Of a stretch of DNA of 64,000 bases, positions 46,918-55,271 are shown piece by piece. The notes under the pieces were generated by a model that had not been told where the DNA came from, did not search any database, and worked only from the letters and a program-made list of their open reading frames with translations. The position numbers and the translations under genes are program-made. Each line of letters begins with the position of its first letter. Positions within the stretch are counted from its first letter, which is position 1. The DNA comes from Escherichia phage vB_EcoM-E33: the sequence record OL780484.1; one strand, written 5' to 3'.

Positions 46918-47766
46918 ATGGCTTATACCGTAGATATGGCTCCTTTGGCGGCTACGGCCGTTATTGGAGCAACAACCAATTTCACTGCGACCGGTTCCGG
47001 TGCTGCAGCTGAAGGTACCGAATCATTTGTCTGGACCGTTGATGGCGTTCCTCAATCTTCTGTGACTGCTGCAATGGATTATGTTGCTGTTGGCCCGGCA
47101 GGCAGCAAGACTATTAAAGTTGTTGCAACAACTACACCGGCGGACGGCGAACCAGAAACAGCTGAAGCCGAAACAACTTTAACTATCCAGAATAAAACCA
47201 TTTCCGGTGTTTCTGTGACATTAACCCCAGCTTCGATTAATGTTCCGGAAGGCACTCCAGCTTCTTTTAAAGCGGATGTGGTCGGCGCTCCTGCCGGCGC
47301 TACTTTTGCCTATTCTTGGAAGAAAGACGGTTCTCCTGCAGTTGGCACCACGGATACTCTAGCAATCGACACAAGCACTGAAGGTTCACAGGTTATTGAA
47401 GTTTCTGTTGTGGTTTCGGCGACTGATTATGACCCTGCGACTGTCACAAAAACCGGTAATGTAACAGTCACGGCTGAAGTCGCACCAGTTCCGGATGGTG
47501 AACTACCTTACGTTCATCCGCTGCCGGTACGTAATTCGGCTTATATTTGGTGCGGTTGGTGGGTTATGGACGAAATTCAGAAAATGACTCTTGCTGGTCA
47601 AGACTGGAAAACAGATAACCCAGATAGCCCGTATTATTTGCACCGATACACACTTCAAAAAATGATTACCGACTATCCAGAGGTTGATGTACAAGAATCT
47701 CGTAATGGTCGAATTATTCATCGCACCGCTTTAGAAGCTGGTATTATATACGATTACGTTTACTAA
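46918..47766 (+). CDS. hoc: Hoc-like outer capsid decoration protein (Ig-like repeats)
   Basis: 282 aa; two Thr/Val-rich repeats then a Trp-rich C-terminal domain; T4 synteny; shorter than recalled T4 Hoc (376 aa). Confidence 0.8.
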   Translation: MAYTVDMAPLAATAVIGATTNFTATGSGAAAEGTESFVWTVDGVPQSSVTAAMDYVAVGPAGSKTIKVVATTTPADGEPETAEAETTLTIQNKTISGVSVTLTPASINVPEGTPASFKADVVGAPAGATFAYSWKKDGSPAVGTTDTLAIDTSTEGSQVIEVSVVVSATDYDPATVTKTGNVTVTAEVAPVPDGELPYVHPLPVRNSAYIWCGWWVMDEIQKMTLAGQDWKTDNPDSPYYLHRYTLQKMITDYPEVDVQESRNGRIIHRTALEAGIIYDYVY

Positions 47767-49201: not shown

Positions 49202-49209
49202 ACGATAAA

Positions 49210-49236
49210 GGGACCTTACGGTCCCTTTTATTTTTC
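49210..49236. terminator. Bidirectional terminator between rnlB and the gp24 paralog
   Basis: GGGACCttacGGTCCC followed by TTTTATTTTT. Confidence 0.8.
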
Positions 49237-50508
49237 TAAAGGCGGTAATTTTACGCCGAGATAAGAACTCAATTGACTTTGATTAGCCATTTTGTCCATA
49301 TCAGAACCATCAATAATGCGGGCTTCTTTATCGTCCTTAGCGACGGTATAAGGGTTTGCAGTCAATGCATAACGAGCAAGCAATGCTACTGTAGGTTGTA
49401 AGCTTTCCGGGTCAACAATAACCTTAAATTCACCAACTGAAGTATCACCTTCTTCGTCAACCACATTCAAACCTTCCGTATAAGGCGCATAATATAAAGA
49501 TGCGACCGTCTGTCCTTCACCCATCTGGGCATTTACACCAACAATAACATAATCACATGGACTATTCATATCAGCATAAAGTGGTAGGCCATTCTTTAAT
49601 ATACCATAAGCCAATTCGTCCTGGTCTTCCTTTTTCTCAACCCAACCAGAGGCGGCGAGAATAGCAGCACAACGAGAACTAGCTACTGCATAAGTCCCGG
49701 CAAAAGAAGTCTGTCGTTGGACGGCAGAGTTCATCTCACACATATAATAATATAATGTGCGAGCACGGTCCTGGGCATTATCGTAGCGAGGGTTGGTAAG
49801 GTCTAATACACCCTTTTCAGAAACACCCCGGACTTTAAAACGAGAGCTCACGGTAATTAATGACTGTAATACATCCTTATTAATTTCTTCTGCCATTTGA
49901 ATGCCTAGCAGATTTTCAACGAAATTAGGAGCATTAAACCCGTTAGATTCTAGGTCTTGGGCTAATTCGACTGTCAATGAAGTTTTCAGTTTACGTGATT
50001 TAACTTCAGATTGCCATTTGTCGATACGGAATCCGGTTTCAGCAATTTCAGGATGGCCTTGTTCAAATTTAGAAGTAATAGCAGCATCCGACACCATACG
50101 GATATGGCCGGCTGCCACTGCTTCAGAAATAACTTCGCTGAGGTTGGTTTCTGTGGTTCCGGCGAAAGGAGATGCTTCTAGAACTTTAAACACTACGCTT
50201 TCAAACTGGAACATATCACCGACCGCATAAGCTGTAGATGAATCAGTAAATTCTGGAATATTTTCACGTTCCGTCATACCAATCTGGCCCGCAAATGTTG
50301 CTCCACCAAGATAAGTCATTTTGTCGTCAGGATTCAGTACACGTACCCCATACAGAGCAGCAACCGGTTGATTTGTTTTTTGTTCAGCAACTAGGGCTTT
50401 AAAGATTCGTTTATTAGTTGCTTGGGTGTATGAAAGAAGAGCAGGACGGCCAACCGAGCTGGCAGCCGTCAATGTGGATTCTTTAATTAGGTCTACAATC
50501 TTAGACAT
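49228..50508 (-). CDS. Head vertex protein gp24 paralog (divergent second copy)
   Basis: 426 aa; same family as gp24/gp23 (LTVELAQDLESNGF, YYAPYTEGL, VAKDDKEARIIDGSDMDKMA); start overlaps stop of upstream gp24 by 1 nt. Confidence 0.85.
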   Translation of the reverse strand: MSKIVDLIKESTLTAASSVGRPALLSYTQATNKRIFKALVAEQKTNQPVAALYGVRVLNPDDKMTYLGGATFAGQIGMTERENIPEFTDSSTAYAVGDMFQFESVVFKVLEASPFAGTTETNLSEVISEAVAAGHIRMVSDAAITSKFEQGHPEIAETGFRIDKWQSEVKSRKLKTSLTVELAQDLESNGFNAPNFVENLLGIQMAEEINKDVLQSLITVSSRFKVRGVSEKGVLDLTNPRYDNAQDRARTLYYYMCEMNSAVQRQTSFAGTYAVASSRCAAILAASGWVEKKEDQDELAYGILKNGLPLYADMNSPCDYVIVGVNAQMGEGQTVASLYYAPYTEGLNVVDEEGDTSVGEFKVIVDPESLQPTVALLARYALTANPYTVAKDDKEARIIDGSDMDKMANQSQLSSYLGVKLPPLEK

Positions 50509-51791
50509 TAATCAGCCTCGTAAATAATTGCCGGAAGTTTAACGCCAACCAGATAAGACATATTGCTCTGTCCAGCCATTAAATCCATATTGGTTGCATC
50601 GATAACACGAGCTTCTTTATCGTCTTTAGCCACGGTGTACGGGTTAGCTGATAGTGCATAACGAACCATCAGAGAAATAGAAGGTTGTAATGAATCCGGG
50701 TCAACAATAACCTTATAAGCACCGACGTGTTCTTGGTCATCTAAATCTAAGCCTTCGGTATAGGGAGCGTAGAAAATAGAACCGACAACTTCATTACCGC
50801 CGTAATTCTCTTTAACACCAACGGTAACATAATCTAATGGACTGTTAACGTCACAAAACAGAGGCAGACCATTCAACAAATATCCGTATGCAGTTTCCGG
50901 AAGCCAATTATTATCTTCGGGTTTATGTTTTAACCAGCCAGAACCTGCAAGCATTGCAGCCACACGACTTGAAGCCACAACAAACGTGCCAGAATAAGAA
51001 GTAGTTTTCTGGATTTCAGAATTCATCTCACAAACGAGTTCATAAAGTTTACGTGCAGATTCAGGAGCACTGTCATAAGACAAATCGATGATGCCGTTAT
51101 CAGATACACCAGTAACTTTATAACGTTTGGATACGGTTATTAGAGATTGCAGAACGTCTTTATTAATTTCATCTGCCATTACTGTAGCCAAGAGGTCTTC
51201 TAAGAACGCCGGCGCGTCAAAGCCATTTGATTCCATATCCTGCGCTAATTCTACAGTCAAAGCCGTCTTCAATTTACGGGTCTTAACCGGAGCATTCCAT
51301 TTATTAACCTGGAATACAGCATCAGAGATTTCTACATCACTCGCTTCAAATTTAGTGGTATGGGCAGCATCAGGAACCAGACGACATGTTAATGACACTA
51401 AACCTTCTTGAAGAGCATCAGCCAATTCTGTGGCGCTAGTGGACGCGAGTGGGCTTGCTTTAAGAGCCTTATAAACCACATTCTGGTACTTGAAATATTC
51501 ACCCTGAGCAATCGCCTGGGCCTTATCTGTGAGTTCTGGGATAGTTTCACGGTCTTTAGAACCAACTTCACCACCATAAGAGGCACCTGTCTGGAAACTA
51601 AATTCATTATCAGGGGTAAGATATTTGACACCATACAGTGCAGCAATAGGCTGGCTAGTACGTTGTTCGGCGATAATATCACGGTAAATCAATTTGGTTG
51701 TAGCACGGGTCAAAGCAACAAGATTAGGGCGACCCAATGAGTTGCTGGAAGTAGTTGTTGACTCGCGCAGTAATTCGTTAATCTTTGCCAT
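50508..51791 (-). CDS. 24: Head vertex protein gp24
   Basis: 427 aa, MAKINELLRESTTTSSNSLGRPNLVALTRATTKLIY... near-identical to recalled T4 gp24. Confidence 0.92.
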   Translation of the reverse strand: MAKINELLRESTTTSSNSLGRPNLVALTRATTKLIYRDIIAEQRTSQPIAALYGVKYLTPDNEFSFQTGASYGGEVGSKDRETIPELTDKAQAIAQGEYFKYQNVVYKALKASPLASTSATELADALQEGLVSLTCRLVPDAAHTTKFEASDVEISDAVFQVNKWNAPVKTRKLKTALTVELAQDMESNGFDAPAFLEDLLATVMADEINKDVLQSLITVSKRYKVTGVSDNGIIDLSYDSAPESARKLYELVCEMNSEIQKTTSYSGTFVVASSRVAAMLAGSGWLKHKPEDNNWLPETAYGYLLNGLPLFCDVNSPLDYVTVGVKENYGGNEVVGSIFYAPYTEGLDLDDQEHVGAYKVIVDPDSLQPSISLMVRYALSANPYTVAKDDKEARVIDATNMDLMAGQSNMSYLVGVKLPAIIYEAD

Positions 51792-51819: not shown

Positions 51820-51827
51820 TATTTATA
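51820..51827 (-). promoter_or_regulatory. Late promoter for gene 24
   Basis: Minus-strand TATAAATA 29 nt upstream of the gene 24 ATG. Confidence 0.7.
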
Positions 51828-51863: not shown

Positions 51864-51892
51864 AGACATATCAAAACATGAGGAGATTAAAA

Positions 51893-52159
51893 ATGAACAA
51901 GTTAAACTTTATTCGTACTACTCTTTCCGCTCTTGATAAAGACATCAAAGCTCTGGTAGAAAAATTCGGTAACAATCCTAATGGTAATGCAGTGAATGCC
52001 TTAGTTAAGAAATACGAAGCCATGGCTTATGCTACCGACTTCTGGTGGAACGGTGAATACTCTACCCATACCAAAGACAAATCTGGTAACTGGCTGAAAA
52101 TCCAAGAAAATCGTATTGACTTCCGTGATATCATCAACCGCCGAGTTAAGATTGCATAA
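51893..52159 (+). CDS. Hypothetical early protein encoded antisense to the late capsid block
   Basis: ATG 51893 with RBS GAGGAG behind an early promoter; lies where T4 has segD (as I recall) but shows no endonuclease motifs. Confidence 0.55.
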   Translation: MNKLNFIRTTLSALDKDIKALVEKFGNNPNGNAVNALVKKYEAMAYATDFWWNGEYSTHTKDKSGNWLKIQENRIDFRDIINRRVKIA

Positions 52160-52174
52160 TACAGAAACAAGAAT

Positions 52175-52192
52175 GGGAGACCGAAGTCTCCC
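52175..52192. terminator. Terminator hairpin between the 51893 ORF and gene 23
   Basis: GGGAGACcgaaGTCTCCC; on the minus strand the loop reads UUCG and a T-rich run follows. Confidence 0.7.
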
Positions 52193-52208
52193 ATAATAAG
52201 GTTATATC

Positions 52209-53768
52209 TTAGATACCTTTAACATATACGCGACGGAAGTAACCATTCAGACCAAGGCTGTTAACGATGTCAGGCATACCATTCTGGATACGTTTGGTAG
52301 GAGCCTGAGCAGCAGGGTCAGCGAACGGGTTGATACCGATACCGTAACGAGTTTTGAAGCCCATTACCGGTTGGAAGTTCTTCGGATCGGAACCACGCAG
52401 CGGGGTCAGTGCAACGTACGGAGCATAGTAGATACCTGCGTCCATTTCGTTAGCGCCTTTATAACCGATGGTGAAGTAATCGGAACGTGCATACTGGTCG
52501 ATGTAAACGCGATATTTACCACCAAGAACACCGGCAAATACTGCTTTGGTTGTGTCAACGTTGAAACCTTGACCCAGACCTTGAGCTGCATAACTTACAG
52601 AAGTATCAACTGCAGCCAGTACGTTAACTACGTTACGGGAAGCGATGATGAAGTTACCAGCACCACGACCGGTCTGACGAGCGATTTCGGCTGCTTCTTT
52701 ATCAATCTGGAACAGAAGGGCTTTAAAGCTCTCACCGGCCCAACGAGCACCACGGATATCAATCGGGTCCTGGAAGTCAAACACACCAGCTTTAGCGCCA
52801 ACGGTGTTGGTCATACCAGATTTACCAACCTGTGCAGAGTAGTTAATCCAATCGATAACTTCACGGTTGATTTCGAGCATAATTTCGGTAGCAAGGATAC
52901 CGGACAGTTCAGCATCTGCATCCATACCGTGTACTGCACGAAGGTCCTGTGCCAGTTCGATAGAGTAGCTTGCTTTCAGCTGACGGGATTTAGCTTCGAT
53001 AACTTGTTTGTCGATGCGGAAGCCCATTTCGTTCCACGGGTTATCGGTAGAACCGTTAAAGCCTTCCTGAAGTTCGGCGATAGAAGTAGCCATACCTTCA
53101 GCCAATTCAGCCAACTTACCAGCTTCAATCAAAGCGGTAACAGCAGCATCCAGTTTAGCGGCATCAGTAGCAGCAGCATCAACGGTTACGGCTTCAACAG
53201 CCTGGAAGTGTGCAGCACCGGTAGCTTCGAAGAAGTGAGAATAAATTTTACCAACTTCCAGAACTTTGCTTGCCGCCAGTGCTTCGAAAGTTTCAGCAGC
53301 ACCCTGACCAGAGAACATAGCGTCTGGAGAATACATCGGATGGAAAGCTTCTTTAGCGCCAGAAGCGATAGGGTCTTTACCATAAACTGCACGAAGGGCA
53401 AATACCTGGCCGGTAGGGTTATTCAGAGGCTGAACACCACAAATATCAAAAGCAATCAGATGAGGAATAGCACGACGAACCATACCCATTACTGCCGGCC
53501 CAATCTGAGTTACAGCACCAGAAGTCTGGCCAGCTGCGATATTGGTAGCATCATAACCGTGGTCACCACCAATTTCAGCTTCGGTCAGGAAAGAACCAAA
53601 TGCTTCAGAGATTTTTTCATCACGATATTCCGGAGCAGTCAGGATGTCTTGTTCCTGGTTTTCGAAAATTTTAGCGATGATAGCTTGTTTAGAAGCACCC
53701 ACGATTTCAGGAAGGGCTTCGTTTTCCAGCAGAGCGGACCATTTTTGAACTAATGCATTCTTTTTCAT
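52209..53768 (-). CDS. 23: Major capsid protein gp23
   Basis: 519 aa; long near-identical stretches to recalled T4 gp23 (AEIGGDHGYDATNIAAGQTSGAVTQIGPAVMGMVRRAIP...). Confidence 0.97.
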   Translation of the reverse strand: MKKNALVQKWSALLENEALPEIVGASKQAIIAKIFENQEQDILTAPEYRDEKISEAFGSFLTEAEIGGDHGYDATNIAAGQTSGAVTQIGPAVMGMVRRAIPHLIAFDICGVQPLNNPTGQVFALRAVYGKDPIASGAKEAFHPMYSPDAMFSGQGAAETFEALAASKVLEVGKIYSHFFEATGAAHFQAVEAVTVDAAATDAAKLDAAVTALIEAGKLAELAEGMATSIAELQEGFNGSTDNPWNEMGFRIDKQVIEAKSRQLKASYSIELAQDLRAVHGMDADAELSGILATEIMLEINREVIDWINYSAQVGKSGMTNTVGAKAGVFDFQDPIDIRGARWAGESFKALLFQIDKEAAEIARQTGRGAGNFIIASRNVVNVLAAVDTSVSYAAQGLGQGFNVDTTKAVFAGVLGGKYRVYIDQYARSDYFTIGYKGANEMDAGIYYAPYVALTPLRGSDPKNFQPVMGFKTRYGIGINPFADPAAQAPTKRIQNGMPDIVNSLGLNGYFRRVYVKGI

Positions 53769-54635: not shown

Positions 54636-55271
54636 TTATAACGCTTTTTTCATGGCCTCTGCGAGAGCCATAAAGGCGTCATCGGCACTGGTATCGGTTT
54701 CTACCGTTTGTGATTCTGTAATTTGCTTCGGAGTTACATAAGCATCAGGAGCAGATGGTCCCCATACTGCATCAACACCGACGGTTAATTTATAACCTTC
54801 GTTTACACGCTTATATCCTTTATTGGTTTCAGTTAAAGAACCAAGACCGCGAGAACTAACACCAGGAACCCAGCCAGCTCGGATATTTGCAGCTAGTTTA
54901 TCACCCGGGCCATGGTCACCTTCGATGATACGTGCACGTCCATAAACATCATTACCTTTCCACCACATATCTTCAATAATGATAGCAGCTTGCATAGGGT
55001 CAACGTTAGCACGAGGTGGGTGGTTTAATTCTCCTAAAGCTTGTTTAGTAGCAACCTGTTCTGCCATATAATCGGCAACGGCTTTTTCCAAAATAGGTTT
55101 TGGGTAAAGGCGTTTATTACGGTTAACTACCTCTGCTTGCATGAAAATGCCTTCTATATAAAGGCCGGGAGCAAGCCCAGAATTTTTTCCATCATGAGAT
55201 TCCAACATAGGAACCCCATCGATAATTTCACCTGGTTGTCCCCAATGTTCGATGAGCAATTCAGGTTTCAT
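54636..55271 (-). CDS. 21: Prohead protease gp21
   Basis: 211 aa; near-identical to recalled T4 gp21 (LLIEHWGQPGEIIDGVPMLESHDGK...). Confidence 0.95.
   Translation of the reverse strand: MKPELLIEHWGQPGEIIDGVPMLESHDGKNSGLAPGLYIEGIFMQAEVVNRNKRLYPKPILEKAVADYMAEQVATKQALGELNHPPRANVDPMQAAIIIEDMWWKGNDVYGRARIIEGDHGPGDKLAANIRAGWVPGVSSRGLGSLTETNKGYKRVNEGYKLTVGVDAVWGPSAPDAYVTPKQITESQTVETDTSADDAFMALAEAMKKAL

Follow-up and report, generated by a model that had tools for sequence, protein, structure and literature searches.

A 64,000-nt stretch of DNA (the window) from Escherichia phage vB_EcoM-E33 (OL780484.1) carries two adjacent minus-strand genes of the gp24 capsid vertex family. The upstream gene, 24a (50508..51791), is the T4 gene 24 ortholog, its product being a capsid vertex protein precursor of 427 aa. 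The downstream gene, 24b (49228..50508), codes for another vertex protein of the gp24 family, 426 aa long, which falls into a separate and old clade. Neither ORF has an internal stop. Gene 23 (52209..53768, minus strand), on the 5′ side of the pair, encodes the major capsid protein, whose hexamer lattice is closed by vertex proteins. The gene order is 23, a small opposite-strand ORF, 24a, 24b, rnlB, 24.3, hoc, inh and uvsW, and is the same in JS98, Bp7, QL01 and WG01. The window DNA is 99.7–99.9% identical to Escherichia phages Bp7, QL01, WG01 and LQ5, the first three lying at 99.7–99.8%, and 86% identical to JS98 across the locus; its phage is a Bp7/JS98-type T4 relative (Dhakavirus). The LQ5 record is without annotation.

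Promoter, junction and terminators of the gene pair

A T4-type late promoter, TATAAATA (51820..51827, minus strand), is an exact match and lies 29 nt 5′ of the 24a start codon, followed by a Shine–Dalgarno sequence read as AAGGAAA (51803-51797, minus strand). Between this promoter and the 24b start, we found no internal late promoter for 24b, with one mismatch allowed. Terminator-like hairpins bracket the pair. One (52173..52194, minus strand) is located directly 3′ of gp23 and sets the transcript of gp23 apart from the unit formed by 24a and 24b. The other (49207..49228) is bidirectional, being GC-rich with T-runs on both strands, and lies where 24b and rnlB converge. Terminators are annotated in NP4 and KLB2 at the counterparts of both hairpins.

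As the preliminary description had read it, the TAA of 24a (50510-50508) and the ATG of 24b (50508-50506) overlap by one nucleotide on the coding strand, GAGGCTGATTAATGTCT. The junction (50506..50519, minus strand) consists of GAGG (50519-50516, minus strand), which is the Shine–Dalgarno sequence of 24b, and TAATG, with a 7-nt spacer between GAGG and the 24b ATG. GAGG followed by TAATG or TAAATG is conserved in seven cultured phages. We compared 13 loci from Dhakavirus, Gaprivervirus, Gelderlandvirus, Kanagawavirus, an FBB1 (Risoevirus)-type contig and uncultured phages, and in all 13 the spacing of the two genes ranges from a 4-nt overlap to a 1-nt gap. Translational coupling of 24a and 24b is plausible. 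No significant RNA structure that would hide the 24b ribosome-binding site was detected at the junction (z = 0.66). Coupling is also made less certain by the GAGG Shine–Dalgarno sequence that 24b has of its own and by the commonness of 1-nt overlaps, which are routine within this head-gene cluster. The relative synonymous codon usage (RSCU) of 24b correlates less well with that of gp23 (r = 0.62) than does that of 24a (0.82), which may be a weak hint of lower expression.

Family membership of the two proteins

Both proteins are collinear end to end with T4 gp24, which bears out the assignment of the two ORFs to the gp24 family. BLASTP matches to T4 gp24 extend over ~424 aa, with 70% identity for 24a and 56–57% for 24b at full length. 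The earlier reading of 24b as divergent yet of this family therefore stands, while that of 24a as near-identical to T4 gp24 was wrong, near-sameness being confined to the first ~20 residues. The 24a protein is 100% identical to the 'head vertex protein' of Bp7. Between themselves, 24a and 24b share 55% identity at full length (E = 7e-177). Both match Pfam PF07068 (Gp23 family) far above the cut-off of 24.4 bits, at 330.2 bits (24a) and 323.8 bits (24b), as well as phrog_138 (E = 2e-131 and 1.6e-122, respectively).

The alignments place 24b far closer to gp24 than to gp23: its matches in the Protein Data Bank (PDB) reach E ~ 1e-150 for the T4 gp24 chains 1YUE, 5VF3 and 8GMO versus E ~ 1e-11 for gp23 chains, and its identity to the gp23 of the window is 28% over 286 aa (E = 3e-21). 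The lengths of 427 and 426 aa fit a gp24 of ~427 aa without the long N-terminal propeptide of gp23. An AlphaFold2 model of 24b (34-sequence alignment) was of low confidence, with a mean pLDDT of 50.7 and a pTM of 0.45. On sequence, 24b is predicted to adopt an HK97-like fold that includes the insertion domain of gp24, since it shares 56–57% identity at full length with the solved chains 1YUE and 5VF3.

In T4, the prohead protease removes the first 10 residues of gp24 (PMC9958956), and mature T4 gp24 chains in the PDB begin at residue 11. At the level of the motif, both proteins of the window have the protease site (cleavage at the arrow): MAKINELLRE↓S in 24a and MSKIVDLIKE↓S in 24b. The form (L/I)xE↓S at residues 8–11 is kept in 16 of 16 proteins of the downstream-type clade.

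Distribution, selection and age of the pair

Paired vertex genes are already known: public records have listed them since 2007, beginning with that of JS98, under the labels 24a/24b (JS98, JS10), 24(1)/24(2) and vertex protein I/II. At an identity of at least 80%, the upstream-type gene occurs in 91 phage records and the downstream-type gene in 87. Full-length gp24 matches were found in ~1,555 records, only ~90 of them with the pair; a single gene 24 is the usual state of T4-like phages in this collection. In all 13 loci, the downstream-type gene directly follows the upstream-type gene on the same strand, and the pair sits between gene 23 and rnlB (the window and 12 other loci). We found no phage with a solitary downstream-type gene and, in the genomes examined, no case in which 24b alone was lost beside a kept upstream-core-type 24a. 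On the question whether the duplication is ubiquitous and already characterised in this phage group, which the preliminary description had raised, the pair proved ubiquitous and annotated, but a functional study of the pair, or of the role of 24b, was not found in the searchable literature. Proteomics, genetics or structures for any pair-carrying phage were likewise not found in the literature, and the PDB matches are T4 chains only. One article matched 'head vertex protein II' (PMC11544783), in the main text of which the term was not found.

Across 21 phage pairs, dN/dS is 0.04–0.08 for 24a and 0.02–0.07 for 24b, so both genes are under strong purifying selection. Beyond the lack of virion data in the searchable literature, nothing positive speaks for 24b as a pseudogene or as a protein that does not enter the virion, a reading to which we give very little weight. 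All genomes examined have an intact ORF, which together with the low dN/dS rules out a pseudogene; moreover, the Shine–Dalgarno sequence and the cleavage motif are conserved, and the homology to a structural protein is full-length.

Synonymous divergence between the paralogs has reached saturation (dS 1.5–3.3). Third-position identity between 24a and 24b varies from 0.23 to 0.67 with no near-identical tract, and no gene-conversion tract was seen between them. Recent duplication and gene conversion were rejected on the basis of the saturated dS and the absence of a near-identical tract.

We built gp24 trees by neighbour-joining only, with bootstrap. The upstream-type and downstream-type clades are each monophyletic (bootstrap 100%), and the window's two copies adjoin those of JS10 in their respective clades. 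24a groups with the gp24 of T4, RB69 and PG7, with the downstream copy outside (bootstrap 100%), and 24a and 24b are sisters in 0% of bootstraps. Site patterns agree with this: only 5 derived sites are common to both copies, against 53 at which 24a is the same as the T4 group and differs from 24b. The downstream clade (n = 28 sequences; identity 66–100%) emerges near the gp24 of Jiaodavirus, Tegunavirus and Acinetobacter phages, at the weakly supported base of the Tevenvirinae gp24 radiation, its exact branch point having a bootstrap of 31–63%. From these sequence comparisons, 24b appears to have branched off before the T4, RB69 and upstream-type lineages split, making the split between 24a and 24b an old one.

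These data speak strongly against the view that gene 24 was duplicated in tandem only recently, within the lineage of this phage, and that its downstream copy is now diverging. Such an event would fit the adjacency, equal length and collinearity of 24a and 24b, and also the excess of lineage-specific changes at otherwise conserved sites in the downstream copy (30, versus 13 in the upstream copy). Because of this ~2.3-fold excess, some acceleration and long-branch attraction are possible. However, present-day rates are equal in the two copies, the paralog dS is saturated, the trees and shared sites separate the copies, and the downstream clade is found in five genera, always in the same position; we regard a recent duplication as highly improbable. 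What stands of the preliminary description is the presence of two intact tandem gp24 paralogs with a stop/start overlap; a reading of the pair as remarkable, or as of recent date in this phage, finds no support. Its suggestion of ongoing subfunctionalisation is also unlikely, because dS is saturated and the 24b branch predates the T4/RB69/upstream-type split.

The origin of 24b could instead lie in a divergent gene-24 allele of a different T4-like lineage, picked up by recombination in a co-infected cell and placed beside the resident allele, after which the pair spread; we consider this possible, though doubtful. The position of the downstream clade near Jiaodavirus, Tegunavirus and Acinetobacter-phage gp24 points in this direction, as does an identity of 64–66% to the gp24 of the Jiaodavirus KLB2, compared to 55–59% to its own neighbour. 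The vertex module also moves by recombination, as seen from discordant partners in the two clades (P0014/P0058 and P0015/P0088), from discordant identities of the two copies among JS98, VR7 and the window, and from the replacement in MX01 described below. However, no solitary downstream-type donor was found, the grouping of the downstream clade with KLB2 has a bootstrap of only 61%, and an ancient in-place duplication followed by several losses explains the largely mirrored topologies of the downstream and partner clades equally well.

A probable two-gene vertex module and its relation to known systems

We favour, as the probable reading, that the locus is a standard JS98/Bp7-type two-gene vertex module, in which 24a and 24b are non-redundant, co-adapted vertex subunits. 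Purifying selection on both genes, the cleavage motif, the conserved junction and the near 1:1 co-occurrence support it. In such a module, 24a and 24b would be made late from one mRNA, transcribed from the single late promoter 5′ of 24a between the bracketing hairpins, so that their amounts would be linked. Both proteins would enter the prohead, where the gp21 protease would trim each after Glu10, and both would supply pentameric subunits to the 11 vertices other than the portal vertex. These vertices might be filled either by homopentamers of one protein or the other, each at different vertices, or by mixed pentamers, and the two genes would be inherited, or replaced, as a unit.

MX01, also a Dhakavirus, is such a case of replacement. 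Its gp23, RnlB and Hoc are 97.9%, 98.2% and 95.7% identical to those of the window, but it has a single gp24 of a third lineage (68% identity to 24a, 55% to 24b), and both vertex genes have been replaced together by this one gene. A chimera of 24a and 24b formed by unequal crossing-over was rejected for the MX01 gene, since in sliding windows its identity stays at or below 84% with the upstream type and 73% with the downstream type. A near-identical gp23 lattice is thus closed by a single vertex protein in MX01, and two vertex proteins are therefore no geometric necessity.

MX01, in which a single vertex gene is enough alongside a 98%-identical gp23, would also fit a conditional or back-up role for 24b, for example at other temperatures, in other hosts or against a host defence that recognises or attacks the vertex protein; 24b would then be optional in the capsid. 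The small share of pair carriers among gp24-bearing records fits this too, and so do the VR-series phages, which have been described as low-temperature phages. On the other side, 24b has no independent promoter and its junction with 24a is tight in all 13 loci, both of which point to obligatory co-expression; its dN/dS is as low as that of 24a, the record counts of the two types are nearly matched (91 versus 87), and loss of 24b only was not found. A back-up role is, on this evidence, unlikely.

Within the favoured two-subunit module, a more specific arrangement is conceivable, if rather speculative: 24a and 24b would each form homopentamers, with the 11 non-portal vertices divided between them by symmetry class, and the single gene 24 of T4 would be a secondary loss from a two-gene ancestor. 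The loss is suggested because paired lineages of the FBB1 type branch at the base of the T4/RB69/PG7 clade. An example of vertex classes in a prolate head is the apical vertex versus the two rings of five. To our knowledge, vertex-specific specialisation of capsid pentamers is undescribed in tailed phages.

As a finding, the pair matters little, given ~90 public genomes with it and two vertex labels since 2007. The question it raises is real but modest: what has kept two vertex proteins, predicted to be co-expressed, under strong selection for so long in several genera, when T4 and even the near-identical MX01 manage with one? The answer would inform how the non-equivalent vertices of a prolate capsid come to be occupied and how genes of the capsid shell undergo subfunctionalisation, and it is of practical relevance where JS98/Bp7-type phages are engineered or used for therapy or display.

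JS98 (EF469154), Bp7, QL01 and WG01 have the same gene pair in the same order and differ from the window in nothing of substance. Stop and start abut (TAAATG) in JS98, VR5, VR7 and P896, whereas they overlap (TAATG) in the window, JS10 and NP4. The gp23 of the window is 98.3% identical to that of JS98 and 84.4% identical to that of T4. T4 gp24 (1YUE; capsids 5VF3, 8GMO and 7VRT) resembles the vertex proteins of the window in family, length, collinearity, late promoter, the LRE↓S protease site and its position between gene 23 and rnlB. T4 has, however, one gene 24, with segD between 23 and 24, where the window has two vertex genes; the preliminary description was right in giving T4 a single gene 24 with a homing-endonuclease gene at the 23/24 junction. 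Compared with T4 gp24, 24b has clade-specific fixed changes, mostly in residues 11–70 (V25L, A26S, T32N, L34R, Y36F, K56R and Y57V), and its clade has a conserved stretch at residues ~111–160 that is variable in single-copy gp24s.

T4 gp24 itself arose from gp23 by an old duplication, after which each copy was retained at its own place in the shell (PMC9958956). The likeness to gp23 and gp24 of T4 lies in the tandem duplication of a capsid-shell gene, which with 24b would have happened once more. The two cases differ in that gp23 and gp24 are ~20–28% identical and have proven distinct roles, in hexamers and pentamers, respectively, whereas 24a and 24b are 55% identical and any division of roles between them is putative.

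Two adjacent gp24-family genes and their occurrence

Two adjacent genes for capsid vertex proteins lie on the minus strand, the upstream 24a (50508-51791, 427 amino acids) and the downstream 24b (49228-50508, 426 amino acids), and their products are 55% identical over the full length. Both match Pfam PF07068 (324 and 330 bits, cut-off 24.4) and phrog_138. The 24b protein matches the solved T4 gp24 chains 1YUE, 5VF3 and 8GMO with E ~1e-150 versus only ~1e-11 for major capsid protein (gp23) chains, and it is 28% identical to the gp23 encoded in the window; its AlphaFold model was of too low quality for use. These ORFs and family matches confirm the gp24 pair noted in the preliminary description. 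That account took the upstream copy to be near-identical to T4 gp24; instead, identity to T4 gp24 is 70% for 24a, and 56-57% for 24b.

The pair is real and correctly placed but not new, being already annotated in many public genomes, and the two genes are almost certainly the known 24a and 24b. Across its 3.15 kb, the locus shares 99.7-99.9% identity with Escherichia phages LQ5, QL01, vB_EcoM_FB, PSD2002, Bp7 and WG01, 93% with JS10 and 86% with JS98; all these phages belong to Dhakavirus. Annotated records among the close matches already list two vertex genes, labelled ‘24a’ and ‘24b’ in JS98 (GenBank EF469154) and JS10, ‘24(1)’ and ‘24(2)’ in VR7, and ‘capsid vertex protein I’ and ‘II’ in VR5. 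The gene pair is likewise found in Gaprivervirus (VR7, P896), Gelderlandvirus (NP4), Kanagawavirus (Q7622) and a metagenomic contig encoding the downstream-type protein of Erwinia phage FBB1 (Risoevirus). At a minimum of 80% identity, the upstream-type gene was found in 91 records of the phage collection and the downstream-type gene in 87, so the types occur together at close to a 1:1 ratio. As ~1,555 records contain a full-length gp24 match, the pair is present in ~6% of gp24-matching phages. For pair-bearing phages, a literature search that lacked key older papers returned no data from proteomics, genetics or structure determination.

Transcription signals, the gene junction and neighbouring genes

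A perfect T4-type late promoter (TATAAATA; 51827-51820, minus strand) lies 29 nt 5' of the 24a start, and no further late promoter was found before the 24b start with up to one mismatch allowed. Terminator-like hairpins directly follow gp23 (52194-52173, minus strand) and 24b (49207-49228). The latter is perfect, 9 bp, GC-rich and bidirectional, with T-runs on both strands, and is common to the convergent 24b and rnlB between which it sits. The single promoter and flanking hairpins predict that 24a and 24b form one late transcription unit. Codon usage correlates with that of gp23 at r = 0.82 for 24a and r = 0.62 for 24b, a weak hint that 24b may be expressed at a lower level.

At the junction, which reads GAGGCTGATTAATG on the coding strand, the TAA stop of 24a (50510-50508) and the ATG of 24b (50508-50506) have one base in common, as initially described, and a GAGG Shine-Dalgarno motif lies 7 nt 5' of the ATG. 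GAGG followed by TAATG or TAAATG is kept in the seven cultured phages compared. The proposed translational coupling from 24a to 24b is plausible, but 24b could also start translation independently from its own GAGG; RNA structure at the junction is not significant (z = 0.66). Three more one-base stop/start overlaps, at 55271, 55699 and 55944 on the minus strand, join head genes equivalent to 21, 68, 67 and 20, and T4 genes 20/67/68/21 also overlap in this way. Junctions of the TAATG type are therefore normal for the head-gene cluster rather than specific to 24a and 24b.

Between gene 23 and 24a, the opposite strand holds a 93-amino-acid ORF (51878-52159, plus strand) with a match to phrog_6003, a family of unknown function (E = 8e-50), and none in Pfam. 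Its counterparts are JS98 orf173 and VR7 ORF190c, and it is apparently absent in phages dhaeg, dhabil and CLB_P2. The same slot holds the homing-endonuclease gene segD in T4, IME08 and IME341; the earlier statement that T4 has a single gene 24, with such a gene between 23 and 24, was right.

Age and origin of the pair

Gene order is constant in the compared loci, the T4-like copy preceding the divergent one. Identity is 83-97% among upstream copies and 83-99% among downstream copies, while the two types are 55-59% identical in every comparison. The initial reading of a recent duplication is wrong, and we give it very little credence: synonymous divergence between the paralogs has reached saturation (dS 1.5-3.3), no gene-conversion tract was detected in 30-codon windows, and neighbour-joining placed 24a and 24b as sisters in 0% of bootstraps. 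In 100% of replicates, 24a grouped with gp24 of MX01, T4, RB69 and PG7 to the exclusion of 24b. Site patterns agree, with the upstream type sharing the T4-group state against the downstream type at 53 sites and a derived state common to the upstream and downstream types only at 5.

The downstream clade, which reaches down to 66% identity in protein searches, comprises 28 sequences on a long stem that branches near the poorly supported base of the Tevenvirinae gp24 radiation. Of its most distant members, five were examined, and each directly follows an upstream-type gene in the interval from gene 23 to rnlB, with spacing from a 4-nt overlap to a 1-nt gap. In three uncultured phages with distant downstream-type genes (L016 2676-4506, L018 2634-4140 and L019 4827-5546), the second vertex gene is followed, before rnlB, by one or two additional genes in the same orientation (166-334 amino acids, one with a faint collagen-repeat match); VR7 has a collagen-repeat protein at the usual hoc site, and alternative head decoration is a possible role for all of these.

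Branching order in the downstream clade follows, for the most part, that of its partner clade, and FBB1-type pairs are basal in both. The single-copy gp24s of T4, RB69, PG7 and MX01 are nested within the partner clade (bootstrap 100%), a pattern suggesting an ancestral pair in that clade and loss of the second gene in T4-type phages. As these are distance trees, deep nodes need caution. Among single-copy proteins, those closest to the downstream clade are the gp24s of Jiaodavirus and Acinetobacter phages, at 64-66% identity and with bootstrap values of only 57-61%. For the origin of 24b alone, ancient capture of a divergent gp24 allele is possible though doubtful, and ancient duplication in place would fit the matching branching orders equally well.

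The trees show some swapping of partners (P0014/P0058 and P0015/P0088). Between JS98 and VR7, the downstream copy is 94% identical and the upstream copy 89%; between the window and JS98, the upstream copy is 95% identical and the downstream copy 90%. These discordant identities indicate recombination breakpoints within or between the two genes among Dhakavirus and Gaprivervirus phages.

Constraint, proposed role and comparison with MX01

Seven phages compared pairwise (21 pairs) gave dN/dS of 0.04-0.08 for upstream copies and 0.02-0.07 for downstream copies. Both types are equally constrained; that 24b is a pseudogene or a non-virion protein is highly improbable. Residues 8-11 form a conserved (L/I)-x-E|S motif in 16 of 16 downstream-type proteins examined. 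The T4 prohead protease cuts the first 10 residues off gp24 at the corresponding site (PMC9958956), and mature gp24 PDB chains start at residue 11. Fixed differences between the clades cluster in residues 11-70 (V25L, A26S, T32N, L34R, Y36F, K56R and Y57V). The N-terminal regions of T4 gp23* and gp24* are N-arms that touch neighbouring subunits after expansion (PMC9958956); if residues 11-70 are the N-arm, the fixed changes would fall in contact surfaces. Residues ~111-160, conserved in the downstream clade and variable in single-copy gp24s, are compatible with altered subunit contacts.

We consider it reasonably probable that one late mRNA yields both proteins, that these pass into the prohead and undergo trimming by the prohead protease gp21, and that they serve as non-redundant vertex subunits at the 11 vertices.

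Escherichia phage MX01, classified in Dhakavirus, has nearly the same backbone as the window (gp23 97.9%, RnlB 98.2% and Hoc 95.7% identical). The Hoc homolog of the window (46918-47766, plus strand), whose equivalent is labelled hoc in the JS98 record, has 282 amino acids versus 376 in T4 (1131-nt gene) and, judged by length, seems to have fewer Ig-like domains. In place of the pair, MX01 carries one vertex gene (L009, KU878969, 2501-3781) that belongs to a third lineage; it shows 68% identity to 24a and 55% to 24b, and no chimeric 24a/24b tract. Its vertex locus is a clean module replacement by recombination. This comparison leads to two conclusions: a single vertex protein is able to close the same gp23 lattice, and both genes were replaced together, not singly. 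A conditional or back-up role for 24b is improbable in our assessment. Joint replacement in MX01 and near one-to-one co-occurrence elsewhere fit a co-adapted pair that is inherited or replaced as a unit.
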